Part shown: positions 615-34,787 of the stretch, one piece after another
How the letters are laid out: every line of letters begins with the position of its first letter
How positions within the stretch are numbered: the first letter of the stretch is position 1
Source: a virus
UHGV virus genome: UHGV-0075096
Length of the DNA: 34,787 nucleotides
Reading direction: 5' to 3' (one strand)
Notes under the pieces: generated by a model
What the model was told of the DNA's origin: nothing
Databases searched by the model: none
Seen by the model: only the letters and a program-made list of their open reading frames with translations
Translations under genes and position numbers: made by a program

Positions 615-2198
615 TTAAGGTTTCGGGTCGAAAATATCGGTTCCGAGATGGTTGTAATCCACCTTCTGTAACTGGAAGTTGGTGATGTATATCGGCCCGG
701 CTTTCTTCTCAGATATAAACGGGTATTTGATATTTATTTCCTTCGCTTTAATTCCCGTCCACTGCGAGAAAAAGCCTAAGAAGTCATTGGCCGAGCGGCG
801 GGCTTTAATCACCCGATGCGCTTTATCGTCGCTGGAAATGACCATAAAAGGCACCTGGAAATTTTGCTGATACTTATCATCATGGGCAAGGTATTGCACG
901 TCTTTGCCGCGCTCTTTAAAGGCCAGACCGTGGTCGGAAAAGTAAACCAGCGAGAAGCTGCTGCCGCTGTTGCGTAACTGATCGTACAGCTTGCGCAGTA
1001 AATTGTCTGTTTGCGTCATGGTATAGAGATAGCACGACGTTTCTTTCGATTGCACAAAGGTTTCGTATTTGCCTTGTGTCCGGTCGCAGGCCTGCGGATG
1101 CGAGCCCATCAGGTGTAGAACAATCAGCTGCGGTTGCGAGTGCTCTTGCGCCAGCACTTGAGCGGTCATATCCAGTAACGCTTCGTCTTTCGTGTTTTTA
1201 TCTGCTTCAAAATTACCTTCTTTCAGGAAGTACACTTCATCTGCTCGTTTGGCGATGCTGGCGATGGCGGTATCGTATTCGCCGATTTGGCCCTGGTTGG
1301 AAAACCACCAGGTCTGGAAGCCCGCGCGATTTGCCAGGGTGACAAAGTTATCCTGAAACTGTGGTTTGCCATCGACAACGCGATTGAGCGTTAAGCCAAG
1401 CGATTTCTGCGTGGAGCCACTGGCGGCAATGTAGTCAGCAAATATCAAACCGTTAACGCTGCTGGCAAACGGGGTATTGTCCCAGTGACCGCCAAAGGCA
1501 CCGAGGGCATCGCGACGCGCGCTTTCTCCGATCACCACCACATAGGTCTGATACTTCGGCTTAACGGCAGTGACCGTCCAGGTATCTTTCATTCCGGAAA
1601 GTTTTGCCATCCGTTCTTGCTCTTCAATCACCTCGTTATTATTGACGATGACATCCTTAGCAAAACGAAATACCGGATAGCCAGTATCTTTCAGTTTAAA
1701 TACGCCGCCCCAGGCCAGGTTTTGCACGGGAGCAACAAAAAATGTCGCCACACTGAATACCAGGCACAGGCTGTCGAAGGTATTCCAGCGCGCTTTTTCA
1801 CTCTCTTTTTTTCGCCTGATTGCTATTACGCCGAGCGCAAAAATAAATATGCCGACCAGGTAGCTGTACCACGGAAAAATCGTCAGGATTTCGGTCGACT
1901 CTTCCATATTGGTGGAGTGCAATGCCAGCAATGTATTGAAGTTAGGCGCGCCGTAGGCCTGAGCAAAAGGGAAATAACAAGCCGCCACCAGCGAACTGAT
2001 ACCGACCAGAACTTTTTGTACGCGAGGCAATGTTCGCCATAGCAAAAGCAAAATAGCCGTAAACGCAGCGGTGTAGAGCAAACTGAAGGGGTAACCTAAG
2101 CCGAGGTTAATTAATAGCGACTGTAAAAAGTAGAACGCAGTCCACGGGCTAAATACCCGGCTACGGGTAACAAGCGATTCTTTGAGGGTTAAATTCAT
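615..2198 (-). CDS. opgE: phosphoethanolamine transferase OpgE (YbiP)
   Basis: 527-aa ORF with an N-terminal multi-TM region and a C-terminal sulfatase-like domain; sequence reads as E. coli OpgE/YbiP, the known ompX neighbour. Confidence 0.9.
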   Translation of the reverse strand: MNLTLKESLVTRSRVFSPWTAFYFLQSLLINLGLGYPFSLLYTAAFTAILLLLWRTLPRVQKVLVGISSLVAACYFPFAQAYGAPNFNTLLALHSTNMEESTEILTIFPWYSYLVGIFIFALGVIAIRRKKESEKARWNTFDSLCLVFSVATFFVAPVQNLAWGGVFKLKDTGYPVFRFAKDVIVNNNEVIEEQERMAKLSGMKDTWTVTAVKPKYQTYVVVIGESARRDALGAFGGHWDNTPFASSVNGLIFADYIAASGSTQKSLGLTLNRVVDGKPQFQDNFVTLANRAGFQTWWFSNQGQIGEYDTAIASIAKRADEVYFLKEGNFEADKNTKDEALLDMTAQVLAQEHSQPQLIVLHLMGSHPQACDRTQGKYETFVQSKETSCYLYTMTQTDNLLRKLYDQLRNSGSSFSLVYFSDHGLAFKERGKDVQYLAHDDKYQQNFQVPFMVISSDDKAHRVIKARRSANDFLGFFSQWTGIKAKEINIKYPFISEKKAGPIYITNFQLQKVDYNHLGTDIFDPKP

Positions 2199-2469
2199 AT
2201 GCCACTATCGTAACAAACGCCATGTGCTTACCCTGGCGTCAAGGGTCAATACCTGCAAGAGTGCGTGAAGAGGGGAAAGGGGTCCGCATCCGCGAGCCGC
2301 AATATACGCAGGGCTGCAAGAAGATAGAGCGAGCTGCTGTTCAGGTCAACTACCGACGAACAAATCTTTTGCGAAGGGGATTGCAAATCCGACAAAAAGT
2401 GGGGTTTTTCAGACCAAAACGCGTTGTGCCTGCATAAAAGCAGGAGTGAAGCGGCGTACCGCGACGCCG

Positions 2470-2598
2470 CTATTTATCGGAAGGTTTATCCTGCTGCGGT
2501 TTGTTGTTGACCATATCGCATAACATAGAGAGCAGCATTAACCGTACTTTAAAGGGAGAATGACTAAACACGCGCATACACCTCTTGAACTCATTCAT
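2470..2598 (-). CDS. mntS: small protein MntS (manganese homeostasis; RybA locus)
   Basis: Hand translation of the minus strand gives the 42-aa peptide MNEFKRCMRVFSHSPFKVRLMLLSMLCDMVNNKPQQDKPSDK; it is absent from the ORF track because it is under 60 aa. A hairpin GCGGCGT-N6-ACGCCGC (2451-2470) abuts the stop codon. Confidence 0.85.
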   Translation of the reverse strand: MNEFKRCMRVFSHSPFKVRLMLLSMLCDMVNNKPQQDKPSDK

Positions 2599-2656
2599 AA
2601 GACCTCCTGACTTGCTAATCCCATCGATCCTTGAGGGATGATTGCATTACATACAG

Positions 2657-2674
2657 ATATAGCACAGGCTATAT
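2657..2674. promoter_or_regulatory. MntR-box-like palindrome upstream of mntS
   Basis: Perfect inverted repeat ATATAGC-ACAG-GCTATAT, 59-76 bp upstream of the mntS ATG; it resembles MntR operators (CATAGC...GCTATG type). Confidence 0.5.
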
Positions 2675-2765
2675 TATAAAGCATCAACTATCTGCGAAAA
2701 ACAACAACTTACAGTGTTATCAATAAGTTACGTTGGTTAATGTCTGTGAGTATTCGGCAGTATTT

Positions 2766-3806
2766 CTAAGCTGTCGCGACATTTTTGCGACATTTTAGGG
2801 GGTTAAGTCGCACAGCATCTTCAAGGTGGCTTGGGGCGAAGTGGGCATAACGCATTGTCATGGTTATGTCAGCGTGGCCGAGAATTTTTTGCAAAACCAG
2901 AATGTTTCCGCCGTTCATCATAAAGTGGCTGGCAAATGTATGGCGCAGTACATGGGTAAGCTGGCCGGAGGGGAGTTCAATGCCTGCGCGTTCCAGAGCA
3001 GAGCGGAAAGCGTTGTAGCAGGGCTTGGGGAACAGAGCGCCTTTTGTTTCAGGTAATTCGGACAGAAGTTCATCATCAAGGGGAATTGTTCTGTTGCGCT
3101 TCCCTTTGGTTTTGACGAACGTGACTTTACCCCCGGCGATCTGGGAGCTTTTCAGCGTTGCCGCCTCATTCCACCTTGCGCCGGTAGCAAGGCAGATTTT
3201 GACAACTAATTCTAGGTACTTAACTTTGCTTCGTTTGCATTCCAGTAAAAGCCGATCAATTTCTTCGGTAGTGAGGAAAGCCATTTCGGTTTCATCAGTA
3301 CGATACTGTCTGACGTTTTCCAGTGGGTTGGGTGCTGACCATTCACCAATCCGTTTCAGTTCATTGAACATCGCTAGAAAGTAAGCATGTTCAAGGTTCA
3401 TAGTTTTCGGGGAAACCTTAGATACTCTGTTGGTGCGGGCATAATGCCCATCCAGCCTTTTAGCGCGGTAGGCTGTGAACAACTGGGCATTAAATTCTGT
3501 GGCCAGCGGGAATCCCATGCATTCCGCCGCCCAGGTCATAGCATCTTTACGCTTTTCGCCATTGCTCAAAGCTACGCCGTGGCGTTCATACCACATTGTT
3601 ATCAGATCTATTAAAGTTCGCTTGTCCTTCCCTTCACCCAGCCACGGAGCTGCGTCTACTTTCTGAAGCGTATGGTTTTCGAATGCCAGGGCTTCCCCTT
3701 TCGTGGCAAATTTTTTACGTATACGCTTCCCGTTCTTGCCATTACTGCGGTTGACGGTGTAGAAGTCGGCGATCCATTCGCCTGTAGGAAGTTTACGAAC
3801 GCTCAT
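2766..3806 (-). CDS. int: P2/186-type tyrosine integrase
   Basis: 346 aa; N-terminal region similar to P2 Int (GKNGKRIRKKF...), C-terminal catalytic motifs ATGARWNEA, HVLRHTFASH and the Y of MTMRYAHF; lies 2 bp downstream of cI as in 186. Confidence 0.9.
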   Translation of the reverse strand: MSVRKLPTGEWIADFYTVNRSNGKNGKRIRKKFATKGEALAFENHTLQKVDAAPWLGEGKDKRTLIDLITMWYERHGVALSNGEKRKDAMTWAAECMGFPLATEFNAQLFTAYRAKRLDGHYARTNRVSKVSPKTMNLEHAYFLAMFNELKRIGEWSAPNPLENVRQYRTDETEMAFLTTEEIDRLLLECKRSKVKYLELVVKICLATGARWNEAATLKSSQIAGGKVTFVKTKGKRNRTIPLDDELLSELPETKGALFPKPCYNAFRSALERAGIELPSGQLTHVLRHTFASHFMMNGGNILVLQKILGHADITMTMRYAHFAPSHLEDAVRLNPLKCRKNVATA

Positions 3807-3807
3807 T

Positions 3808-4425
3808 TTATTTTATCGTCAGAACAACGCGGCCTATGATTTTTATGTCGTCAATTCCGCAATCAAATGCCATACCAACACCGCTAACTCTGACTTTTCG
3901 TACCGGAATCCGTGTAAGAGTGCGGACGCTTGTTTTTCCTTCAACTTCAACCAACCAATCATCGTCATAAACTTCAGAATAAGACTGGTCAACAATGTAC
4001 TGAATAAGGCCATCCAGAACACAAATCGGTTGTTGCGGTAAGGGCTTGCCAGGCAGGAAGATGACTTTATCAAGCATAAGTGTGCCAGCGTCATAGAGTT
4101 GGCCATCAACAATCTTGCTGCGCGGCATTTTGAGTATGTCTAATTCATCATCATTAAATTTACGTCCCTGTCCTGTTGCCAGCCACTCCAGATTAGCGCC
4201 TGTTTCGGCTACGCATTTCACGACAATATCTGCCGGGAAAACTCCACGCTTGTAGCGTGAAGAAAGAGAACTGGCTGCCATGTCCAGATGTTCCGCGAGC
4301 TGTAACTTCTGCGTAAATCCGTAAGCCTCGATCACCCTGTCAAGAATCGGTGTGCTATCTACGTTTAGGTCGATTTTAAATGTGCTCATAGCGAATCCAT
4401 AAGTCTCGATTCGAGAAATTGCCAT
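3808..4425 (-). CDS. 186-type CI immunity repressor
   Basis: About 205 aa with an N-terminal HTH-like segment (EAYGFTQKLQLAEHLDMAASSLSSRYKRG) in the position and orientation of 186 cI, co-directional with int. Start is uncertain: ATG at 4425 chosen, alternatives GTG 4431 and ATG 4389. Confidence 0.7.
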   Translation of the reverse strand: MAISRIETYGFAMSTFKIDLNVDSTPILDRVIEAYGFTQKLQLAEHLDMAASSLSSRYKRGVFPADIVVKCVAETGANLEWLATGQGRKFNDDELDILKMPRSKIVDGQLYDAGTLMLDKVIFLPGKPLPQQPICVLDGLIQYIVDQSYSEVYDDDWLVEVEGKTSVRTLTRIPVRKVRVSGVGMAFDCGIDDIKIIGRVVLTIK

Positions 4426-4524
4426 TGACACTTCTCGAAACGCGAATTAATCTGGCTCCATATTTCGAATGTTGCCTTATATAACCCTGTATTGCCGTAC
4501 AGGTTAACTTGTGGAGTTTGCCTT
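4426..4524. promoter_or_regulatory. lysis-lysogeny switch region between divergent cI and apl starts
   Basis: 99-bp gap between the divergently oriented cI and apl start codons; in 186/P2 the lytic and lysogenic promoters and operators lie here. Individual -35/-10 elements were not resolved. Confidence 0.45.
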
Positions 4525-4776: not shown

Positions 4777-5280
4777 ATGTTTGATTACCAGACATCTAAA
4801 CATGCGCACTTTGATGCGGCTTGCCGAGCATTTGCAACTGAGCACAATCTTGAAGATGTGGCCGCTGCTGTTGGTATGAGGCCACAGATCTTGCGCAACA
4901 AACTGAACCCAGCGCAACCGCACCGCCTAACCTGTGATGAGCTTTTGGCTATCACGGATTACACCGAAGATGCACGTTTACTTGATGGGATGTTAGGTCA
5001 GATTAACTGCCTTCCATCCGTGCCGGTGAACAATGCCACTGAAGCCAACATGCAACTGTGTGCGCTTAGCGCCACTGCGTGTGTGGGAGCGATTGCTGGG
5101 GAAGCCGTATCAACTGGCCATATGACCGCCGCCCGCCGTGCTCAAATTTTGGATCGCGCCCGCGATGCAATCCGTAGCTTATCCGTGCTGGCTTATACCG
5201 TTGAAAGCCGTATTCACTCTGCGCCGGTTCTGGCTGCTGCGGTGGATCTGGTCACAACCCACGCCACCGGCCTGATGTGA
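4777..5280 (+). CDS. 186 CII-like transcriptional activator (CP76 family)
   Basis: 167 aa beginning MFDYQTSKHAHFDAACRAFA, the size and position of 186 cII directly after apl; GGGAGAGG RBS. Confidence 0.7.
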   Translation: MFDYQTSKHAHFDAACRAFATEHNLEDVAAAVGMRPQILRNKLNPAQPHRLTCDELLAITDYTEDARLLDGMLGQINCLPSVPVNNATEANMQLCALSATACVGAIAGEAVSTGHMTAARRAQILDRARDAIRSLSVLAYTVESRIHSAPVLAAAVDLVTTHATGLM

Positions 5281-5289
5281 GGGAACACT

Positions 5290-5463
5290 ATGAAAGCGTT
5301 TGTCACTTACCTGAAAAAAGAATCACCAGCCATGCAGTTGCCGAGTGGTTCAACGGGCTGGATAGAACTGCCGAACGGTCAGCGCTGGAACCCAGGCCAC
5401 ATTTACAAATTCAATGGCCAGCAGCCGCGCCGCCCGTGGTGGCGTCGTCTGATGGGGCTATAG
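5290..5463 (+). CDS. hypothetical small early protein (57 aa)
   Basis: Hand translation gives MKAFVTYLKKESPAMQLPSGSTGWIELPNGQRWNPGHIYKFNGQQPRRPWWRRLMGL; GAGGGA RBS 5 nt upstream; ends just before the strong RBS of the next gene; below the track cutoff. Confidence 0.35.
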   Translation: MKAFVTYLKKESPAMQLPSGSTGWIELPNGQRWNPGHIYKFNGQQPRRPWWRRLMGL

Positions 5464-5471
5464 GAGGCGTT

Positions 5472-5900
5472 ATGGCGATTAGCCAGGAACAGCAAAAGCG
5501 CGGGCTGGAGCATTTAAAACAGATCCGCCGCAAATACTTCAGCAAAAGCAGCGAGGCCGCTGAATGGTGGGACAACTTAACACCGGAGTGGCGCGGCGTA
5601 GTGCTTCATGCTGCTGCGGTTACATCTGGTACCGGGGCATTTAAAGCCCATTTAAGTAAGTGCTGCTGGCGGGAGCTTTATGACCGCCTGGGCTATCGGG
5701 ACATGATTCAACTGCGCCAGGGCATTTCACGGGCGCGGTTAACGTTTGAAGGTTTCGGCAGTTTACGTGACAGCGATTTTTCGAAGCGCACCGCGAACCG
5801 CCCGATCAAAAAAGTACATCCCATTTATAGCAGTGGCGGGGTGCAGATGGTGATCGCGCCGCATATCGTCCATAAGTTCCAGCAACAGGGGAATCACTAA
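5472..5900 (+). CDS. hypothetical phage early protein (142 aa)
   Basis: An internal ATG of ORF 5277..5900 is preceded by a consensus AGGAGG RBS (5462-5467); the upstream part of the track ORF overlaps the cII end and the 57-aa ORF and is probably not translated. Confidence 0.6.
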   Translation: MAISQEQQKRGLEHLKQIRRKYFSKSSEAAEWWDNLTPEWRGVVLHAAAVTSGTGAFKAHLSKCCWRELYDRLGYRDMIQLRQGISRARLTFEGFGSLRDSDFSKRTANRPIKKVHPIYSSGGVQMVIAPHIVHKFQQQGNH

Positions 5901-6301
5901 TGACCATTATTTCCGTTGAGGGCAAATCGTTGGGGGCAGAGCTGGCTGTGTGGGGCGTCCCGCATAACTACGCATTAGCGTTTGCAGAGAAAAGCACCAG
6001 TAAAAATGGGCGTATCGCTTTGCATCCGTTCTTCTTCAATGACACTGAACACATGACAAATCCGCGTCACTGGCTGGCGATCAATGCTGCTTTCTGGTGC
6101 TGCGTGTATCGCGAAGCGGAAAGCAAAGAAGCCCAGATAGAAGCGCTGGCGGGGATTCGTGCAATTTTCTATACAGCCGGGGCATTGGGAGTTGGCGAGA
6201 TAAAAGCGCTGATCCAGGAGTGGTGGCGGACAACCTATGAGCTGCACCTGATTCCGGCTCCGAACTACTCAGCCGCCACAGTACAACCCACTTTTCACTA
6301 A
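5900..6301 (+). CDS. hypothetical phage early protein (133 aa)
   Basis: ORF whose start overlaps the previous stop (TAATG), suggesting translational coupling in the early operon. Confidence 0.55.
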   Translation: MTIISVEGKSLGAELAVWGVPHNYALAFAEKSTSKNGRIALHPFFFNDTEHMTNPRHWLAINAAFWCCVYREAESKEAQIEALAGIRAIFYTAGALGVGEIKALIQEWWRTTYELHLIPAPNYSAATVQPTFH

Positions 6302-6368
6302 TTAACAGCCTGAATTTTTTGGCCACGGTTCAAGTGGCCGGGGATTCTTTTGCCTTAAGGAAACCAAA

Positions 6369-6602
6369 ATGCACATGACACGTCAGGATTTACCCGCAAC
6401 AAAATCAGGCACCGACCTGCTGGCCATGCTCACCAAAGCCACGCAGGAAGGTAAAGCCGCAGTTGCTGATCTGTGTTCCACCCGTCTGGATAAGCTGGCC
6501 ACTCATGCGGCCAATGAAGGTTTAAGCGCAACGGAAATCGTTGAGTTAATCCGCGAAGAAGCCGCAGCGATTTGCAGCAAAGGCGGTGCGGCATGGCAGT
6601 AA
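6369..6602 (+). CDS. hypothetical phage early protein (77 aa)
   Basis: ORF with an AAGGA RBS upstream; it follows a hairpin (GGCCAC-N7-GTGGCC, about 6322-6340). Confidence 0.45.
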
Positions 6603-15296: not shown

Positions 15297-16001
15297 ATGG
15301 CACTTTCCCCCGCGCAGCGTCACAGCCAGCGTATTGCAATGGAACAAAAGCTGAAGCGCAGCCAGGCACTGGAAACCGCGGAAAGTATGCACCTGCTGAT
15401 CAGGGCGCTGGAAACGGATGTGGAACACGTTCGAAGTCTGCCTACCATCGCCGATCGCGTCGAGTATAAACGCGATGTGCTGTTGCCGCGCTGGGTTCCC
15501 ACTGTGGAAGCCTATCTGGAGAGTGGCCAGGTGTATGCAAATCCGGTTTTCGCCTGGTGTGTTATCTGGCTGTTTGACGTGGGCGATCTGGATAAGGCGC
15601 TGGACTGGGCTGACATTGCTATCAGCCAGCAGCAGGCAACCCCGGATCGGTTACGCAGCAATTTTCCCACTTTCGTGGCGGATACGATGCTGGCATGGGC
15701 GCAGGAAACCGCAGGGCGTGGGGAAAGTGTGGAGCCTTATTTCACCCGCACGTTTGAGCGGGTGGCAAACACCTGGCGACTGCATGAGCAAGTGACGGCC
15801 AAATGGTTCAAGTTTGCTGGTCAGGAGTTGCTACGCAATGACGATGGCCAGAAAACGGCGGCGGGCGTGGATGATATTGAAACGCTGGAAAAGGCCGATC
15901 AGCTGCTGGCTATTGCAGAAAAACACTACTCAAAAATTGGCGTCAGAACGGCACGGCAGACGATTGCCGCTCGCATCCGAAAATTGACAACACAAGGATA
16001 A
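15297..16001 (+). CDS. terminase small (endonuclease) subunit (P2 gpM homologue)
   Basis: 234 aa, third gene of the O-N-M-L head operon. Confidence 0.82.
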   Translation: MALSPAQRHSQRIAMEQKLKRSQALETAESMHLLIRALETDVEHVRSLPTIADRVEYKRDVLLPRWVPTVEAYLESGQVYANPVFAWCVIWLFDVGDLDKALDWADIAISQQQATPDRLRSNFPTFVADTMLAWAQETAGRGESVEPYFTRTFERVANTWRLHEQVTAKWFKFAGQELLRNDDGQKTAAGVDDIETLEKADQLLAIAEKHYSKIGVRTARQTIAARIRKLTTQG

Positions 16002-16007
16002 CAACAA

Positions 16008-16154
16008 ATGAAAGAAAGCCATTTACAAGGTGCACATACCCATACCGTGGGGGCACATAGCCATTCTCTGGGTGGTGCACATACCCATACCGTGGGTGCA
16101 CATAGCCATTCTCTGAGTGGTGCACATACGCACACTTTTAATACTGAGCAGTAA
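16008..16154 (+). CDS. His-rich repeat micro-protein (48 aa, 12 His)
   Basis: Hand translation: MKESHLQGAHTHTVGAHSHSLGGAHTHTVGAHSHSLSGAHTHTFNTEQ; AAGGA RBS 8 nt upstream of the ATG; built on a 45-bp tandem repeat; below the track cutoff. Confidence 0.4.
   Translation: MKESHLQGAHTHTVGAHSHSLGGAHTHTVGAHSHSLSGAHTHTFNTEQ
16029..16136 (+). repeat. 45-bp tandem direct repeat, about 2.4 copies
   Basis: Unit GGTGCACATACCCATACCGTGGG(G/T)GCACATAGCCATTCTCTG(G/A)GT; copies differ at 2 positions; in frame with the micro-ORF. Confidence 0.85.
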
Positions 16155-16250
16155 ACGACTACCGCAAGCCAGGCGGACGCGGTGGAGGGCAGAACACCTT
16201 GTGTGTAACTGCGCCGTGGAAACCGGCCAGTCCGCCTTTTCGGGGGATTT

Positions 16251-16703
16251 ATGTTTAGCGGAAAGCCGCTGGATTATCAGGATGAACCGCTGACCAATAA
16301 CGGATTCTGGCCAGACCTGAATCTGAAGGATTTTCAGGCGCAGCGGTCACTACCGCCAGATATTGACGCTGACACCATCAGCCAGGCGCTACTTGCGGCG
16401 GTGGCGGAGGTGAATGCGGAGCTGGAAAACGTGGAAGCCAGCTGGAAAGCGAAAGGCAACACGCTGGCGGCAGAGGTACCAGGCGTAAAAATGGGCGGAC
16501 TGAACAGCCTGTGCGCCCAGTATATGAAGGCCGTTTTTGCCAGGGCAAAAGCGGATCTGCTGGGGGAGTTTGCCACCATCGGGCGGCGTGATACCCATCC
16601 GGGACAGGAAAGCATGGAAACCCGTGCGGGGTTACTGGCTGAAGCATCGGTGGTGATCCGCCGTATGAAAGGGCTGAAACGGGCAACGGTGAAAAAAGTA
16701 TGA
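16251..16703 (+). CDS. head completion/stabilisation protein (P2 gpL homologue)
   Basis: 150 aa, last gene of the head operon. Confidence 0.75.
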   Translation: MFSGKPLDYQDEPLTNNGFWPDLNLKDFQAQRSLPPDIDADTISQALLAAVAEVNAELENVEASWKAKGNTLAAEVPGVKMGGLNSLCAQYMKAVFARAKADLLGEFATIGRRDTHPGQESMETRAGLLAEASVVIRRMKGLKRATVKKV

Positions 16704-26725: not shown

Positions 26726-27312
26726 TGACTTTTAAAATGAGTGAAACCGATCAAGCAGTTACTGTTTATAACCTGCGTTCCGACACGAATGAGTTTATTG
26801 GTTCGGGGGACGCTTTTATTCCCGCACATACCGGACTGCCAGCCAACTGCACCACAATAAAACCACCGGTAATCAAAGCAGGGTTTGTGGCAATTTTTGA
26901 TTCAGAGAAGCAAAGATGGATTTCCCGTGAGGATCATCGTGGCGAGGTGGTGTTTGATACAGAAAACGGTAATGAACTGGTGATCACCGAGCCAGGCGCT
27001 TACCCGGAAGGGACAACCACGTTAGCACCGGCTAATGCCTGGCAAAAATGGAATGGTAAGGCGTGGGTGGATGATGCGGAGGCCATGCGAATTGCATTAG
27101 TCAGCGAGGCAGACGCCGAAAAGAAAAGACTGCTTAAACAGGCCAATGACGCCATTGCCACATTGCAGGATGCCGTTGATTTAGACATGGCAACCGAAGA
27201 AGAAGCATTGCTGCTTACCGCATGGAAAAAATACCGCGTTTTACTGAATCGTATTCAACCGGAAGATGCGCCAGAAATTGTGTGGCCGGAGGTGCCTGGA
27301 AATGTGGCGTGA
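26725..27312 (+). CDS. tail fibre assembly protein (Tfa; P2 gpG-like)
   Basis: 195 aa ending with the motif typical of Tfa chaperones (WKKYRVLLNRIQPEDAPEIVWPEVP); directly downstream of the fibre gene. Confidence 0.8.
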   Translation: MTFKMSETDQAVTVYNLRSDTNEFIGSGDAFIPAHTGLPANCTTIKPPVIKAGFVAIFDSEKQRWISREDHRGEVVFDTENGNELVITEPGAYPEGTTTLAPANAWQKWNGKAWVDDAEAMRIALVSEADAEKKRLLKQANDAIATLQDAVDLDMATEEEALLLTAWKKYRVLLNRIQPEDAPEIVWPEVPGNVA

Positions 27313-28027: not shown

Positions 28028-28544
28028 TGGCGAGGCTATCCAGCTGAAAAACATGCGGGTGACTGTTTCACAGCAATTTCAGGATAAAGATCAGTCCGGC
28101 CAGACCAGCGCCACAACAAAATCAGAGCAGGGAGCAAAGGGAAAGGAACTGCGGATCAGCGGTGAAATACCTTTTAAACAGCCTGAAATACTGAAGCGTA
28201 TTTTTGAGCTTGCCAGCGCTACCGATGCCAGTGGTAATCGTCAAAAGTACCGTGTGGCGCATGAAGTTGCCCGTGCTGTTAATTTTCGTGAAGCAACGTT
28301 CAGCGGAATGCTGGATGCACCCCAGCAGGACGGGAAAATGTCCTGGCTGGTGACGTTCACACTGGCGGAACATATCAGCGTGCAGGAAAAGCGAGAGGCC
28401 AGAGCAACAGGTAAGACGACCGCAAAAAAACAGACTGCCGGTAGTGCGGGACAGGCCGGTGGCCAGTCTGCCGGAGAAGATGAAGAAAAACTGACGTGGT
28501 TTGAACGCAAGGTGCTGAAGCCCGTCAATGATGCTTTGGGTTAA
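27999..28544 (+). CDS. hypothetical tail-associated protein (181 aa)
   Basis: ORF coupled to the downstream hub/spike gene (TAATG overlap); start uncertain because it overlaps the upstream gene by 29 nt. Confidence 0.45.
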   Translation: MTSIPTLALNGEAIQLKNMRVTVSQQFQDKDQSGQTSATTKSEQGAKGKELRISGEIPFKQPEILKRIFELASATDASGNRQKYRVAHEVARAVNFREATFSGMLDAPQQDGKMSWLVTFTLAEHISVQEKREARATGKTTAKKQTAGSAGQAGGQSAGEDEEKLTWFERKVLKPVNDALG

Positions 28545-30247
28545 TGATGAAACCAGTAAAACGCCTTTACCTTTCAACGGATGAAGTTCACCTGGTGGAT
28601 GCCAGCCTGGTACTGGAGCTGAACAGCTGCGGCCGGGGCTTCATCACCGCAGAGACAACAACCGATTACACCGGAAAACTGGTGCGGCTGGATGTAGGGT
28701 ATACCGATCTGCTTTTGCGCTGGTTTACGGGGTACGTGGAGCGATCGCAGCCCGCAGAAAACGGTTTTCAGCGTCTGTTCATTCGTGAGCTGGTAGGTGT
28801 GTTTGAAAGGATGTGGCCGTGCTCATTTCAACATCCAACTTTACGCGAGGTTGCCAGCTGGCTGGAAGAAAACAGTGGTATCTCGGTCAGTGTGCCTGAT
28901 GCACAGTACAGCGATACCCCCATCCCACATTTTACCCATAACGGTACCGGCTATCAGTTGCTGAACAATCTGGGAAGGGCGTTCAGTATCCAGGATTACA
29001 TCTGGTACCAGTTGCCTGATGGTTCGCTTTACGTCGGTGGCGCAGAAAAGTCACTGTTTGCCGGTCGTCCCGTAGAAATCCCGTCAGAGTTCAGCCAGGG
29101 GGCTGCTGGTGGTAACTCTGTGACATTACCAGTGATCCAGACTATGCGGCCAGGGGTGGAGATGAACGGTGAACGCGTGACTAAAGTTCACCTGACTAAT
29201 GACACGATGGCGATCACATGGACGCCGAGAAACCGCGCAACGGGTAAACCTTTGCAGAAAACACCGGCGCAACGGCAGATTGAAAGCCATTACCCGGAAC
29301 TGGCATCCGGGCTTCATTTGCCAAAGACGGCCAGAGTCGTGGCGCATTCAGAGCCAGTAAAAAGCGGTAACTTTGCCGATCCCTTCCGGCCACGTTACGC
29401 CGTGGACGTGCAACTGCTTGACGCAGACGGAAACCCGGACAATCAGACGCCTGTTTACTCAGCGGTGCCGCTGCCGGTACCAATGGCCGGGAATGATTCA
29501 GGTATGTTTCAGTTCCCGCCTGAAGGGACGCTGGTTGAGGTCGCATTCACAGGAGGCAGACCGGATAAACCCTTTATCAGGCAGACGCTGCCGGATGGCA
29601 CCAGTCTGCCGGACGTTAAACCCGGTGAGCAATTACAGCAGCAGCGGGAAGAAGTATCCCTGAGGGTGACTCAGGCGGGTGACTGGGTAAGGCAGACCGA
29701 TCAGACCATCAGCGAAACATCAATGGTGCGAACCGTAAAAGCCGATACAGAACAGCGCGAACTGGTCAGCCGTGAAACCACGGTGAAAGCCACGGATAAA
29801 ACCACGGTACTGGGAACCGCCACATTGCTGGCCGGAGCCATCCAGCAGGTAAGCGCCGGTGATTATAGCCAGGCGGTGAAAGGTAACAGGCTGGCCAGTA
29901 TTGAAGGAAACGAAGAAACGGACATAGCAGGACAGCAGTCCACTAAAGTGGGCGGTGCTGTAGCCGTGGAGGTTGGCGAAAGTCTGACAGAGAAGATTGC
30001 CGCACTGCGTAAATCAGTGGCTGCTGGCGGTCAGCAGGTCATGGGGGCAACTGTCCATATTGGCAGTGAGAGCATCAACGCCCTGACCATGATGCTGGAT
30101 ACCATTGATTTACTGGCAGAGCTTGCGCAGCAATGCGCGAACCATTCGCACCCCACCGTTGGAACTCCAACCAATGCCGCCGCGTTCACACTGACGGCGA
30201 CGAAAGCCGGGCAGACCCGGAGCAAATACCAGAATATAATTGCCTGA
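28544..30247 (+). CDS. putative baseplate hub/central spike protein (gpD/gpV-like)
   Basis: 567 aa, last gene of the tail module and followed by a strong terminator; the C-terminal region contains CANHSHPTVG (an HxH motif as in spike apex domains). Assignment is inferred from position and motifs. Confidence 0.45.
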   Translation: MMKPVKRLYLSTDEVHLVDASLVLELNSCGRGFITAETTTDYTGKLVRLDVGYTDLLLRWFTGYVERSQPAENGFQRLFIRELVGVFERMWPCSFQHPTLREVASWLEENSGISVSVPDAQYSDTPIPHFTHNGTGYQLLNNLGRAFSIQDYIWYQLPDGSLYVGGAEKSLFAGRPVEIPSEFSQGAAGGNSVTLPVIQTMRPGVEMNGERVTKVHLTNDTMAITWTPRNRATGKPLQKTPAQRQIESHYPELASGLHLPKTARVVAHSEPVKSGNFADPFRPRYAVDVQLLDADGNPDNQTPVYSAVPLPVPMAGNDSGMFQFPPEGTLVEVAFTGGRPDKPFIRQTLPDGTSLPDVKPGEQLQQQREEVSLRVTQAGDWVRQTDQTISETSMVRTVKADTEQRELVSRETTVKATDKTTVLGTATLLAGAIQQVSAGDYSQAVKGNRLASIEGNEETDIAGQQSTKVGGAVAVEVGESLTEKIAALRKSVAAGGQQVMGATVHIGSESINALTMMLDTIDLLAELAQQCANHSHPTVGTPTNAAAFTLTATKAGQTRSKYQNIIA

Positions 30248-30282: not shown

Positions 30283-30692
30283 ATACCCTTCTCCAGACGC
30301 AGCAGAACGCACCCTCAGCACTTTAGGCAACAAATTAACCCAACTCAACACACATAAAAGATCGTGCGCATGGCGCTGCGTTGGCGCGACGATGCACCGA
30401 CAAAATAAATCTTTCGCAGACAAAAACGGCGCTACACCGCACCCGCCTGCGGTTTCTGGATCTGGAAAATTTTTCTGTTTTATTTTTCTACAAAACAGAC
30501 CGCCAGACCGCGCCGCTGCTGGCGGCTTTGCGGAGAACTGAAACTGAAATGATTGAAAAGGATTTCACTTTTTTTCAGTGAAAAGGATCTGTGAAGGATC
30601 GATGGGAAAATATAACTATCAGAATATAAAAGAGAAATTGAATTTTAGGTGGCGTTTGTGGATCGTTAGTTAAAGGGGGGGGGATATTCTGT

Positions 30693-30724
30693 AAAAAAGC
30701 CCGCGACATCAGATGTGGCGCGGG
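30693..30724 (-). terminator. rho-independent terminator downstream of the glycosyltransferase-like gene
   Basis: On the minus strand, hairpin CCCGCGCCACATC-A-GATGTCGCGGG (one 2-nt bulge) followed by TTTTTT; 40 bp beyond the stop at 30764. Confidence 0.65.
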
Positions 30725-30763
30725 ATGGATAGAAATTTATTCTTATAGAACAACTGAAAAAAA

Positions 30764-31480
30764 TTACTTTAAACTGAGTTTAAAATTTTTGAATTTACCA
30801 TACAGGGTATCGCGTACAGAAAAGGAAGGAACCCAATTGAATCCTGTTCGCCATGGGCGAGGACTACCGTGAAAGCATACAACTGAAACATCATCAGGAA
30901 CTTTGCCAGTAGCATAATCTGATGCCAAGTCAGGGTTGTAACCTATCATTTTACGTGTGGCTATATGGCATTTGTAACTAACAACAGATCCGGGAATTAT
31001 ATCTTGCCACAATACAGGTTTCATGACGCTACCCAGAAACCCCTGATCACCCCATTTATCTTCTGTTTGGCATTCATGCATATTTTTTTCGGGGTCAGTC
31101 CAGAACGCATCCCAAACATATTGTTTGATAGACGCAGGAATGAACATAATGGATGAGTTAACCCTGGAAGGGTGGTTAAACTCCCGCAGCATAGTGAACT
31201 CTTTCGCCGCATCAAAGATTTTGATATCACCAGTTATGACAACATCAACGTCAAAATAAAGCAGATCCTTATCACCTATTACCGGATGGTTTGGATTAAA
31301 AAGCTCAATCTTAGACCACCAACCTGGAAGGTTGTGCATTAACGGTGCGGTTTCAACACCAGGGATACTTCCAGCATCAGTTAAGCAAATTGAAGGTATG
31401 CCTTTAAATTGGCTATGCAGCCATTGTGCGTGTTTGGGGGTAAATTCTTTACCGCATTTAAGGACGGATACAATCAGCAT
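30764..31480 (-). CDS. putative GT-A fold glycosyltransferase (GT8-like motifs)
   Basis: 238 aa; DxD-type motif (LLYFDVDVVITGD) and a C-terminal H-x2-G-x2-(K/R)-P-W motif (FHGSPRPW) characteristic of retaining GT8 enzymes; GC visibly lower than the prophage core. Confidence 0.45.
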   Translation of the reverse strand: MLIVSVLKCGKEFTPKHAQWLHSQFKGIPSICLTDAGSIPGVETAPLMHNLPGWWSKIELFNPNHPVIGDKDLLYFDVDVVITGDIKIFDAAKEFTMLREFNHPSRVNSSIMFIPASIKQYVWDAFWTDPEKNMHECQTEDKWGDQGFLGSVMKPVLWQDIIPGSVVSYKCHIATRKMIGYNPDLASDYATGKVPDDVSVVCFHGSPRPWRTGFNWVPSFSVRDTLYGKFKNFKLSLK

Positions 31481-31660
31481 ATGGGAATCCCATTCTTTAG
31501 AGCAATAGTGTGCATTTTTTGAACATCGGCAATACTAAAATAAATAGTCAGGGCATAATTTTCTTAGGTAAGAGTCATGATGCCTCATGCCATTCCTTAC
31601 GTAAAGCTAGGCAGACTCAGCATAATGAGGGGACAAAAAGGGGACGCTGACCACTACAAA

Positions 31661-31689
31661 CAAAAAAGCCACTCCGTCAGAAGTGGCTT
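31661..31689 (-). terminator. rho-independent terminator (minus strand)
   Basis: On the minus strand, AAGCCACT-N8-AGTGGCTT hairpin followed by TTTTTT. Confidence 0.6.
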
Positions 31690-31843
31690 AATTATATGAT
31701 TATAAAGCTAAAATTTGGTGGCCCCTTGGACTTGAACCAGCGCCCGGGCGATTATAAGTCTTATGGTGTAACCTTTTGATATTTATATATAAATTTTATT
31801 TTTATGTGAATTTTAAGGATCTCTAACCGCTTTATTTTTGGCT

Positions 31844-31874
31844 AAAAAACCCGCAGTTGTAGCAATGATGCGGG
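31844..31874 (-). terminator. rho-independent terminator closing the minus-strand cargo operon
   Basis: On the minus strand, CCCGCA...TGCGGG hairpin followed by TTTTTT (plus-strand A6 at 31844-31849); about 220 bp downstream of the last long ORF. Confidence 0.55.
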
Positions 31875-32093
31875 TTGAGTTAGTCTTTAAAACTGAAATT
31901 GATCAGCCATAGCGTTCATAGGTAGCTGCGTATGCATTAACGTTTTTTAGGTGGTGGGGCTACTTGCTGCGTTTGCTGCGTTTGCCGTGGTGGTTGATAA
32001 CCATTGTTCTGCTGATTTGGCCTACTTGATGGTTGATATCCCTCATTTATAGGTTGCCAGCCATCATATTTAGTATTGTTTGCCGGTTTTTCT

Positions 32094-32744
32094 TCAGCCA
32101 TTTTTTACCTCACTATTGTTGGGAGAATGTAATTTTACCTCAATAAACTCAACACTTTCTATTTCATTAGTCAATATTATTATGCCTAATGTATCAGCTA
32201 GTTCGTGATCGAAATCGCCATTCTCATCAAGCGCCCAATGTTTCTCAAGATAGATTTGTTCGGGTTCTGGACTATTGGATGCAAATGAGTCACTTCCATA
32301 AAAACCACCATATTTTTTACCGTTTTTTAGTGTTACCAATACCCAGCAGCGTTGTCTGGTTGAGAAGAAGTAGTCCCAAGAGCGCCCTATAGGGTGTGGA
32401 AGAATATTTTTGACTTTTTCCCAGTTACGAATTTTTAGCAATGCAACAGGTAATAGTACAGGTATTACAATTAAAACTAAAAAGTAAAAAATGTAATATA
32501 AAATAGGGTGTTTCAAAAAAATGTCATTTGTTTCAATTAGATAAATTGGTATTAAAAGAAATGAAAAATTTATGCAACTATATGAAACAACGTCAATTAA
32601 AACTTTTGATGTATCCAAATCAATTGATGGGTGAAATAGTCTGTAAACTCTCATGCTGATAAATCCGGGCATAATGAACAGTACAAATAAAAACAATTTC
32701 CCCTTCTCTAAAATGTCCATTTTAATTCCTTTTGCATAAATCAA
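32094..32744 (-). CDS. uncharacterised membrane protein (3 predicted TM helices plus a roughly 100-aa soluble C-terminal domain)
   Basis: 216 aa; hydrophobic segments [26 protein letters not shown] and [20 protein letters not shown]; its ATG overlaps the upstream stop in an ATGA coupling; AT-rich codon usage. Confidence 0.6.
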
Positions 32745-33766
32745 TCATCTTTATTCATCAAATCATGGTGATATCCACAAACACCTCCAAAATCTTGTTC
32801 GTCTTGGGAAAGTGTTGTGCCACATATATAACATTCATTATAGTCAACTTCATAACCACACCACCGACATTTTTGCTCAGCTAGAATAAATGTATCATGG
32901 TTACAGTTAAAACATTCTTCATAAGTCGGTTCATCGCCATCAGGAGGCCAATAAAAAAACTCATCTTCAAAAACCTGCATAAGCAAAGGCGTAAATAAAT
33001 TGATATTCCCGCATGCAACGCACAAATACTTAAAATCGCTTTCAAAATCTTCTACTGTCAGACCTTCTTCTAAACTATCTTGTGAGGCTTTTATAAGTTT
33101 AGAACCACATTTATCGCAGCAACATTCGGGTAAAAATTCCATCATGCCTTCTGGAATACCTGCATACTCCCATGTTGACCTACACTCATATAATTTCGAA
33201 TTATAAAAAGTTTTGTGTTCCAGCATTGTACTCCAGGAACTGCCTAAAACATCTTGTGGAATTTTATCAAGTTCATTTGTTATGAAACTTTCAAGAACTG
33301 GAAATAAATCGGCGACAAAACCAGCAAGCTCGCCGAAAGTGTTTTGAGGATGTAAGTGTTCAAGATGATTTCGGCAATCCTGAAGTTTTTCAATGGCTGG
33401 CCAATCAACTTTTATGTTGAATTTATGAAAGCGCTCCTTTATGCCACAAACATCAATAGTCGATTTTTTAAACTTTCCTTCAGGTTTCCATTCTACCCCA
33501 CCTTTCCCATCGGGGTGGGGAAGCATTTTAGACGGTGGGTTATGTATTAGCACATACGCATGCTCAGGCGTGTCAACAGATTTGGCGATTTTATATTTGA
33601 ATAGTAATAATAAACCAGCGTAAAGATTACGTATGGATGAAAGAGTTCGCAATGAGTTATCAGGTTGTTGGGATAACTGGAAATCTTCAATCCCAAGTTG
33701 TATTGAAGCAATTGCGTTGTCATATAACTTATCCGCATCTAAGGTTAGTGAGGTTGTGTTACTCAT
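32741..33766 (-). CDS. uncharacterised protein with C-terminal multi-CxxC zinc-ribbon-like region
   Basis: 341 aa; C-terminal third contains CCCDKC, CVAC, CFNC, CRWC, CYIC and CGYHH; N-terminal domain contains an R-N-x3-H motif (RNHLEH); AAGGA RBS. Confidence 0.6.
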
Positions 33767-33840
33767 TGTTTGCTCTATCCTTAGTAAATAAAGTTGGATT
33801 ACATATTATGAAAAAAAGTTGGTGCATTCAATCAGTCATT

Positions 33841-34737
33841 TTAAAAGTTTTTCCCTGACCGCGCTAATGCTTTTTCTTCGTTAAAGTAACCAAGTATATA
33901 ATCTCTTATCTCTACACCTAATTTTTCACTTAAGTAAGGGATGTGGTATTCTGAAATATAAAATTGAATGTTGCAATTATCTATGAAATCTTCTTCATAA
34001 AGTTCATGTTTTATGACTGGAGTGTAATTATATCTGTTTTGAAAGATAACATATGGAATATTAAAAATGTGTTCTTCTTTATAGGTTTTATTTTTGAATT
34101 TACTTAACAAAATATCTAACCCGTCAGGATTTGAACTTAGTAAATCTTCAACTTCTTTACGATGTTTTTGTTCAAATAAATCAGTTAAGATATTTCTGTA
34201 GATAGGATTGATAGTACAAAGCGTAGTGGTTTTATCTAAACGATGTAATGGTAAAACTATCTCACCATCCAAAAGTCCCAAGAATGCTTTATTGTGTTCA
34301 TCATCGGTAGATCTTTCCAGTTGTATTGTGCAGTCATTATCTTTCAGCTTTAATAATATGGCTTTGGCAAAATGAGAGTAATCATTGAAACTGATTTTCA
34401 ATAGCTGTATTTTTTTAAGATCATTTCTTCGTTTTTCTTCTTCTTTTTTATCTAATGCTAGTTTGTTCTGTCTGACGATAAGTTTTTCTTTAGTAAATCG
34501 AATGAATAAGTCTACTATACCAAATAGTATGGATGATAGTAATGCACCAAGTGAAAAGCCTATAATTGTTATTAATGTAATAGAAAGTTCATTAGGTATT
34601 TTAAATTGGCCTAGTTTGGGTTCTACTAAAACCCAGCAACCGATGATTGAGCCAGCAATAATTAATAATCTTAGAGAAGAACGGAACGAAACTAAGTTAG
34701 TTAGGTGTGATAAAACGGTAGATAACGGGTCAGTCAT
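33841..34737 (-). CDS. uncharacterised membrane protein (2 N-terminal TM helices, Lys/Glu-rich coiled-coil-like linker, soluble C-terminal domain)
   Basis: 298 aa from the ATG at 34737, which has a strong AGGAGA RBS 7 nt upstream; TM segments LLIIAGSIIGCWVLV and ITLITIIGFSLGALLSSILFGIV; about 33% GC. Confidence 0.6.
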   Translation of the reverse strand: MTDPLSTVLSHLTNLVSFRSSLRLLIIAGSIIGCWVLVEPKLGQFKIPNELSITLITIIGFSLGALLSSILFGIVDLFIRFTKEKLIVRQNKLALDKKEEEKRRNDLKKIQLLKISFNDYSHFAKAILLKLKDNDCTIQLERSTDDEHNKAFLGLLDGEIVLPLHRLDKTTTLCTINPIYRNILTDLFEQKHRKEVEDLLSSNPDGLDILLSKFKNKTYKEEHIFNIPYVIFQNRYNYTPVIKHELYEEDFIDNCNIQFYISEYHIPYLSEKLGVEIRDYILGYFNEEKALARSGKNF

Positions 34738-34787
34738 GTAGGTGTCTCCTGACTTTTGGCTACAAATTATCACATTTTAGAGAAAGT

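Follow-up and report, generated by a model that had tools for sequence, protein, structure and literature searches.

Why does a P2-like prophage carry, between two of its head genes, a frame of 48 codons that encodes little more than a histidine-rich repeat? The question is posed by a stretch of 34,787 nucleotides (virus genome UHGV-0075096, here called the window), a P2-like Escherichia coli prophage lying between mntS/opgE and mntR. Its closest cultured relatives are the Escherichia phages ESSI2_ev129, ev040, and ev015 (Peduoviridae, Quadragintavirus). An earlier note on this DNA, made from the sequence alone, had described the frame as a micro-ORF inserted into the head operon and drew attention to an HxH motif that it shares with the tip of the tail fibre.

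At the same chromosomal site, E. coli Combat13F7 carries a remnant of such an element that lacks any structural genes (compared with window 615..4431 and 30300..34787). It retains an integrase, CI, CII, Fil, one long hypothetical gene, and a 100% identical right-end cargo block, which encodes a DUF6338 protein and four to five hypothetical proteins.

A histidine-rich repeat gene in the head operon

The micro-ORF, whose translation is MKESHLQGAHTHTVGAHSHSLGGAHTHTVGAHSHSLSGAHTHTFNTEQ, separates the genes for the terminase small subunit (gpM) and the head completion or head-tail adaptor protein (gpL) (Table 1). The good ribosome-binding site formerly ascribed to it is an AAGGA Shine-Dalgarno (SD) sequence, identical in all Quadragintavirus-type alleles. 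The body of the gene is a nearly perfect 45-bp tandem repeat in which each unit joins a 21-nt GAHTHTV sub-unit to a 24-nt GAHSHSLG/S sub-unit. At the protein level this amounts to two full 15-residue units and 7 residues, the ~2.4 copies given in the earlier note; the 12 histidines counted there are 11 in the peptide. Conserved caps enclose the repeat, MKESHLQG at the N-terminus and AHTHTFNTEQ at the C-terminus.

Table 1. Positions of the features discussed; coordinates are those of the window unless a locus is named.
Feature	Position	Strand	Basis or remark
gpM, terminase small subunit, upstream neighbour	15297..16001	+	PF05944 and annotations of relatives; TAA stop at 15999-16001
Micro-ORF Shine-Dalgarno AAGGA	15994-15998	+	9 nt 5' of the micro-ORF ATG; overlaps the last sense codon of gpM
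HxH-repeat micro-ORF	16008..16154	+	48 aa, five HxH motifs, 11 His
45-bp tandem repeat	16029..16129	+	Tandem Repeats Finder: 2.2 copies, 96% matches, score 188
Conserved structured spacer	16158..16253	+	3' boundary of the insertion; RNAalifold and pair counts
Helix P1, GC-rich closing helix	16171-16178 paired with 16230-16237	+	followed directly by the U-run, gpL SD, and AUG
gpL Shine-Dalgarno GGGGGA	16242-16247	+	gpL ATG at 16251
gpL, head completion / head-tail adaptor, downstream neighbour	16251..16703	+	PF05926 and annotations of relatives
Tail-fibre gene	25121..26725	+	assembly gene at 26725..27312
Four HxH units, C-terminal tip of the fibre	26555..26650	+	motifs at nt 26555, 26582, 26609, and 26636; 9-aa period
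Further copies of the spacer	L117 154..247; L118 952..1044; L103 3504..3599; others
Barrel gene ('L33' in ev040)	L001 2205..2402		~65 aa; PHROG 8618
Barrel-HxH fusions	L103 3202..3501; L200 3001..3303; L201 3001..3270

No sigma-70-like promoter or terminator flanks the micro-ORF on the + strand, and its ATG follows the gpM stop codon by 7 nt. The gene was thus not classed as a phage moron, which would bring its own promoter and terminator; in a second insertion, described below for the contig L117, the corresponding ORF likewise uses the SD of gpL.

gpM and the micro-ORF share a reading frame, with only TAA CAA CAA between them (window 15999..16010), and the L117 ORF stands in the frame of gpL across TAG CAA. 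Such an arrangement could yield a C-terminal HxH extension of gpM by read-through of the TAA stop. This is highly improbable, however, as the micro-ORF is equipped with an SD of its own at a canonical distance from its ATG, TAA stops translation efficiently, and the barrel gene that takes the same place in ev040 is out of the gpM frame. Two in-frame cases would be expected by chance at ~1/9.

Contents of the gpM-gpL slot in related phages

The gpM-gpL junction was compared in 105 loci drawn from annotated genomes, IMG/VR, GTDB genomes, and metagenomes. In ~75 of the 105, about three quarters, the slot is empty and holds only a spacer of ~96 nt, whose conservation extends to relatives with as little as 55% gpM identity (Ewingella, Serratia, and Photorhabdus). 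The spacer alone is the ancestral state, and the micro-ORF is an insertion into the head operon, as had been proposed on the ground that P2 has no gene between M and L. The annotation of P2 (NC_001895) agrees: M (5157-5900) and L (6000-6509) are separated by a gap of 99 nt with no annotated gene.

Within the 105 loci, the micro-ORF is confined to a clade with at least 97% gpM identity, and 5 of 27 E. coli genomes with this gpM type carry it. No such HxH ORF occurs in the Irrigatiovirus-type loci (0/66) or the P2-type loci (0/80), and when 1.84 billion representative proteins were scanned exhaustively with HMMER, only 7 matched. Given this rarity, any benefit of the gene must be small or conditional. 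A tblastn search of the phage collection with one allele, in which the low-complexity filter masks the repeat, recovered ev129 alone, and word-indexed searches of proteins yielded very few candidates.

Eleven distinct intact alleles were found at the junction, with lengths of 32, 32, 33, 33, 48, 53, 61, 68, 73, 78, and 82 aa; the 48-aa allele of the window was not seen in the other surveyed loci, and the 78-aa allele is that of ESSI2_ev129. The SD and both termini, MKESHLQG at the N-terminal and AHTHTFNTE(Q/H) at the C-terminal end, are common to all of them; what varies is how many internal units there are and of which type (GAHTHTV, GAHSHSLG/S, GAHTHSV, SAYNHSA, and others). The relatives contain 1 to ~4.5 copies of the repeat, or variant units such as SAYNHSA and GAHTHSV, and the HxH motifs, five in the 48-aa allele, range from 2 to 9 in the others. 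The suspicion that the near-identical copies mark a repeat of variable copy number is thereby borne out at a single junction.

The slot has an alternative occupant in several lineages, a gene of ~65 codons (also at L029, L030, L048, L089, L102, and L105) whose product is predicted to be a small SH3/Tudor/KOW-like beta-barrel. Two of the tail-less barrel versions end in ...HH. In Ewingella-type prophages the two kinds of occupant are joined: five fusion proteins, 89-100 aa long and sharing 66-82% identity with the query fusion P0006, consist of the barrel domain followed in frame by 3-4 HxH units, and they end in SHTHTF/L as the micro-ORF does. For P0006, P0009, and P0010, the fusions whose loci were examined, the gene lies in the gpM-gpL slot. 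The slot is thus modular, holding the barrel, the HxH string, or both.

Trees of both flanking genes show the HxH, barrel, and empty states interleaved within a clade ~5-8% divergent from the window, and the nearest downstream flank of the window (1% divergent) belongs to a barrel-type phage. This interleaving indicates that the slot has been repeatedly exchanged, filled, or emptied.

A separate insertion is represented by P0018, one of the 7 HMMER matches, a divergent stand-alone HxH protein of 54 aa with different termini. Its gene lies directly 5' of gpL in an Irrigatiovirus-like contig (L117). Relative to an empty relative with a 99% identical gpL, and to phage SI7, L117 contains a clean insertion of ~168 nt between the SD and the ATG of gpL. 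The HxH ORF takes over the gpL SD, and gpL itself is stop-start coupled to it (TAG CAA ATG; the shared frame spans L117 415..423). The gene is rare and dispensable, and it has entered the gpM-gpL intergenic region at least twice, at different points.

A side observation concerns P0019, a protein of 234 aa encoded on a JGI metagenome contig (L199 1530..2234). It has ~20 consecutive HxH units with a 7-aa period and a non-repeat C-terminal region of ~90 aa. Its gene adjoins a LysR-type HTH gene, with no obvious phage head context.

A conserved RNA structure before gpL

The spacer that bounds the slot on its 3' side folds into three nested helices with an apparently variable apical hairpin. Among 31 distinct spacer sequences, 96.4% of the cells are paired and 8 of 17 pairs show compensatory changes. 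The covariation score was reached by 0/500 shuffles, and slid controls pair at 31-50%. A covariance model matches each locus once, immediately 5' of gpL, in every ESSI-2-like lineage tested. It has no match in P2, and Rfam has no match to the element; taken as a single sequence, 16150-16260 gives no significant fold (z -0.44). The 99-nt M-L gap of P2 likewise ends in a GC stem and a T-run. The structure may act as a partial intrinsic terminator that sets the stoichiometry of head to neck and tail products, or as a translational-coupling device.

The T-run of the window consists of 4 T (16237..16240), against at least 5 in every close relative, and is interrupted in some distant relatives. An upstream extension of gpL into the spacer, which some records annotate (167 aa, from a GTG), was considered and rejected, since it needs the 5-T frame. 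The 4-T run breaks the extended frame, so the spacer is non-coding and the 167-aa extension is probably a gene-calling artefact.

An ORF that is short, rich in His, and followed by a structured RNA with a U-tail recalls the leader of the his operon. The micro-ORF could on this pattern be a regulatory upstream ORF, in which the progress of the ribosome over 11 His codons would control the folding of the spacer and hence the expression of gpL and the tail genes. The spacer is indeed structured, with its GC-rich closing helix and U-run, the ORF is very rich in His, and the upstream stop codon (that of gpM if the slot is empty, that of the micro-ORF here) is always ~15-16 nt 5' of P1. Nevertheless, the idea is very unlikely to be correct. 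The spacer is unchanged in the ~75% of relatives that have no micro-ORF, its consensus structure involves no pairing with ORF sequence, and the ORF lies 5' of the element here but 3' of it in L117. The His codons alternate instead of being consecutive as in a his leader, and regulation of his genes is not involved. An unrelated barrel gene can take the place of the ORF in the slot, and the peptide sequence itself is constrained. A his-type attenuator was accordingly rejected: the spacer structure is real but independent of the ORF.

Selection on the reading frame

The micro-ORF is protein-coding, as judged from the variation among its units and from the in-frame barrel fusions of Ewingella-type prophages. 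A Nei-Gojobori comparison of 28 distinct 21-nt units, paralogous and non-independent as they are, gives pN/pS values of 0.47 for the annotated frame and of 0.71 and 2.55 for the two shifted ones. Synonymous variation is evident for Ser (TCT versus AGT/AGC), His (CAT/CAC), and Gly (GGT/GGC/GGG). The frame is kept in all 11 intact alleles, one of which has an irregular 5-codon indel, although this conservation is weak evidence because units of 21, 24, and 45 nt keep the frame automatically.

The earlier note had held that loss of the frame in close relatives with the repeat retained would point to a DNA-level element. No repeat with a broken frame occurs among the 11 intact alleles. The lone exception is a 40-aa 'allele' in a scrambled contig (L010 4001..4123, Logan ERR3330526), in which the repeat runs into unrelated sequence and then into the right-end cargo genes of the prophage. 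Its upstream gene order is also scrambled, and it was treated as an artefact, produced by chimeric assembly at the repeat or by a deletion, and left out of the 11.

A repeat that acts as DNA, whether as a protein-binding site or as a recombination substrate for the fibre gene, with the ORF incidental, would agree with the near-perfect tandem copies and with the fact that both strands are open across them. It is nonetheless the least credible of the explanations considered here: there is no nucleotide similarity to the HxH region of the fibre gene, variation is concentrated at the synonymous sites of one frame, and protein homologues with diverged DNA exist (the fusions and P0018).

Somewhat easier to entertain, yet still rather unlikely, is that the gene has no function and persists as a tolerated by-product, a repeat ORF that arose or was captured at a recombination-prone junction and has since expanded and contracted neutrally. 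The gene is rare and patchy, its copy number is very variable, its units preserve the frame by their length, and no partner or phenotype is known. Against neutrality, pN/pS is lowest in the annotated frame and switches between the TCT and AGY codons of Ser keep the residue. The termini and the SD are invariant across alleles, the diverged in-frame fusions retain the His pattern, and the second insertion, in another genus, again produced a well-initiated ORF.

Family assignment

The repeat belongs to Phage_fiber (PF03335), a 14-residue tail-fibre repeat (Pfam). Three alleles exceed the gathering cut-off of 20 bits, with scores of 25.2 bits (48 aa), 29.8 bits (78 aa), and 33.8 bits (61 aa), and the micro-ORF has the periodic G-x-H-x-H in tandem copies that characterizes the family. 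Among PDB sequences, only the needle of T4 gp37 (2XGF, E 7e-4) is matched in a meaningful way; a second match is a low-complexity artefact. Matches to Gp5_C are weak and sub-threshold (E 0.03-0.3). Searches of NCBIfam and PADLOC with the micro-ORF alleles yielded nothing at E<=1; with the fusion and barrel proteins they yielded only matches far below threshold.

In the AlphaFold2 model a single micro-ORF chain lacks secondary structure (pLDDT 60), and disorder is also predicted for the HxH tail of the barrel fusion. Disorder of a single chain is expected of an obligate metal-bound trimer, and such a model is not positive evidence for one.

Alleles of the micro-ORF are already in RefSeq (WP_074441931.1, WP_203152244.1, and YP_009877543.1) under the generic or misleading names 'phage tail protein' and 'tail fiber protein', names that derive from the HxH repeat only. 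A tail-fibre identity was rejected, as the protein has no domain beyond the repeat, measures 32-82 aa, and is encoded between the terminase small subunit and head completion genes. No account of this gene turned up in a search of the literature on Quadragintavirus, ESSI2 phages, PF03335, and small His-rich proteins of prophages. The repeat itself is well known; what is new is an HxH-only protein that stands alone, is the product of a head-operon gene, can pair as a module with a small barrel, and differs in repeat number between alleles. Database names that rest on the repeat alone can be corrected on this basis.

Relation to the tail fibre and spike

The tail fibre of the same prophage has six HxH motifs in all, and the earlier note had observed that its tip shares the motif of the micro-ORF in different DNA. 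The likeness is indeed one of protein: a blastn-short comparison (word 7, E<=10) of the micro-ORF with the rest of the window, the HxH region of the fibre included, yields no nucleotide similarity. Recent capture of a fibre fragment is not supported by this result, nor by the lack of similarity outside the slot in ~200 loci.

Functional coupling of the gene to a gp37-like fibre tip was rejected. In a cross-tabulation of loci anchored on the TMP, the state of the slot and the type of the fibre C-terminus are unassociated; gp37-like HxH tips co-occur with empty, barrel, and HxH slots, and phages with an HxH slot also carry other tips.

A further HxH motif lies in a spike-like protein of 567 aa (window 28544..30247, + strand), which has a single NHSHPTVG 30 residues from its C-terminus. 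It recalls the single HxH iron site at the apex of the P2 gpV spike.

These shared motifs bear on the possibility that the micro-protein is a metal chaperone or assembly factor absent from the virion, one that would capture Fe or Zn late in infection and supply it to the folding fibre and spike trimers, or would template their HxH register. The motif in both the fibre and the spike, the late co-expression of the gene, and the modelled disorder of the single chain all suit such a role. It can be entertained only tentatively, however, since the presence of the micro-ORF is independent of the fibre-tip type, the gene sits in the head module beside gpL in two separate insertions, and most relatives assemble HxH fibres without it.

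A putative metal-bridged stalk

At about an even chance, the micro-ORF is a genuine, translated, and dispensable late gene whose product is probably a metal-bridged trimeric rod, acting as an accessory of the head or neck or as an assembly factor. The gene would share a transcript with the head genes O-N-M and use its own SD for initiation, and its product would be a string of Phage_fiber HxH units with short conserved caps. Three chains could then align in register, each HxH triplet (six imidazoles) caging one Fe2+ or Zn2+; a trimer with caged ions is the most likely arrangement by analogy with every solved HxH structure. The outcome would be a short metal-stapled trimeric beta-rod, with five ions for the 48-aa allele, and slippage or unequal recombination in the 21/24/45-nt repeat would reset its length. 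Trimerisation, metal binding, and a role in the virion or its assembly are inferred for the micro-protein by this analogy.

As elsewhere the slot encodes the barrel alone or fused to an HxH tail, the rod would most likely be the stalk module of a small head or neck accessory protein or assembly factor, present here without a globular partner.

A more specific picture, which is speculative and can be given only a modest chance, is that of a minimal, self-sufficient metal-stapled trimeric nanorod on the head or neck, for example on the gpL adaptor, serving as a whisker or decoration with slippage-tuned length. It would be the free stalk of a system of stalk and barrel base, both parts being swapped as cassettes on one side or the other of the conserved structured RNA, which would set the ratio of head to neck and tail expression.

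Comparison with known systems

The closest structural precedent for the putative trimer is the gp37 needle, which has the same G-x-H-x-H-[ST]-[VL] repeat as the micro-protein and in which each HxH from the three chains cages an Fe ion (PMC11705849, PMC6116203). gp37, the P2 gpV apex, and the R-pyocin fibres each contribute one HxH per chain, three times over, to an octahedral His6-Fe site, and the HxH motif of T4 gp12 holds Zn (PMC6116203, PMC11705849). gp37 is a protein of 1026 aa with its HxH strands, six per needle, set between collar and tip domains at a 9-aa period. The micro-protein, in contrast, is all repeat over its 32-82 aa, has no attachment or receptor-binding domain, and is the product of a head-module gene. 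Its period of 7-8 aa is shorter than the 9 aa of the fibre and gp37, so packing may differ. The P2 gpV apex and the R-type pyocin fibres have one or a few HxH sites in large folded trimers, whereas the micro-protein has consecutive HxH sites only, five in this allele and up to ~9 in others.

A short period is also found in the C-terminal triple beta-helix of T4 gp5 (Gp5_C), where three chains wind through an 8-aa repeat. That helix is not His-based, however, and is part of a protein of 575 aa; the match of the micro-protein to Gp5_C falls below the Pfam cut-off.

Dec of phage L and gp8.5 of phi29 are trimeric decoration or head-fibre proteins with a small globular base and a trimeric beta stalk. 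The Ewingella fusions resemble this plan, with a predicted barrel of ~60 aa followed by a putative repeat stalk and a gene placed among head genes.

HxH repeats are known solely from large trimers of fibres and spikes, where they form buried metal sites. A naturally occurring protein of 5 kDa that consists of HxH sites alone would be the minimal unit of the HxH fold. It would allow a direct test of whether HxH strings suffice for metal-driven trimerisation, with a natural length series of 2 to 9 sites. If the gene is only a tolerated accessory, the practical gain is better annotation. In either case, the gpM-gpL junction of ESSI-2-like Peduoviridae is a small cargo hotspot framed by a conserved RNA structure not previously described.
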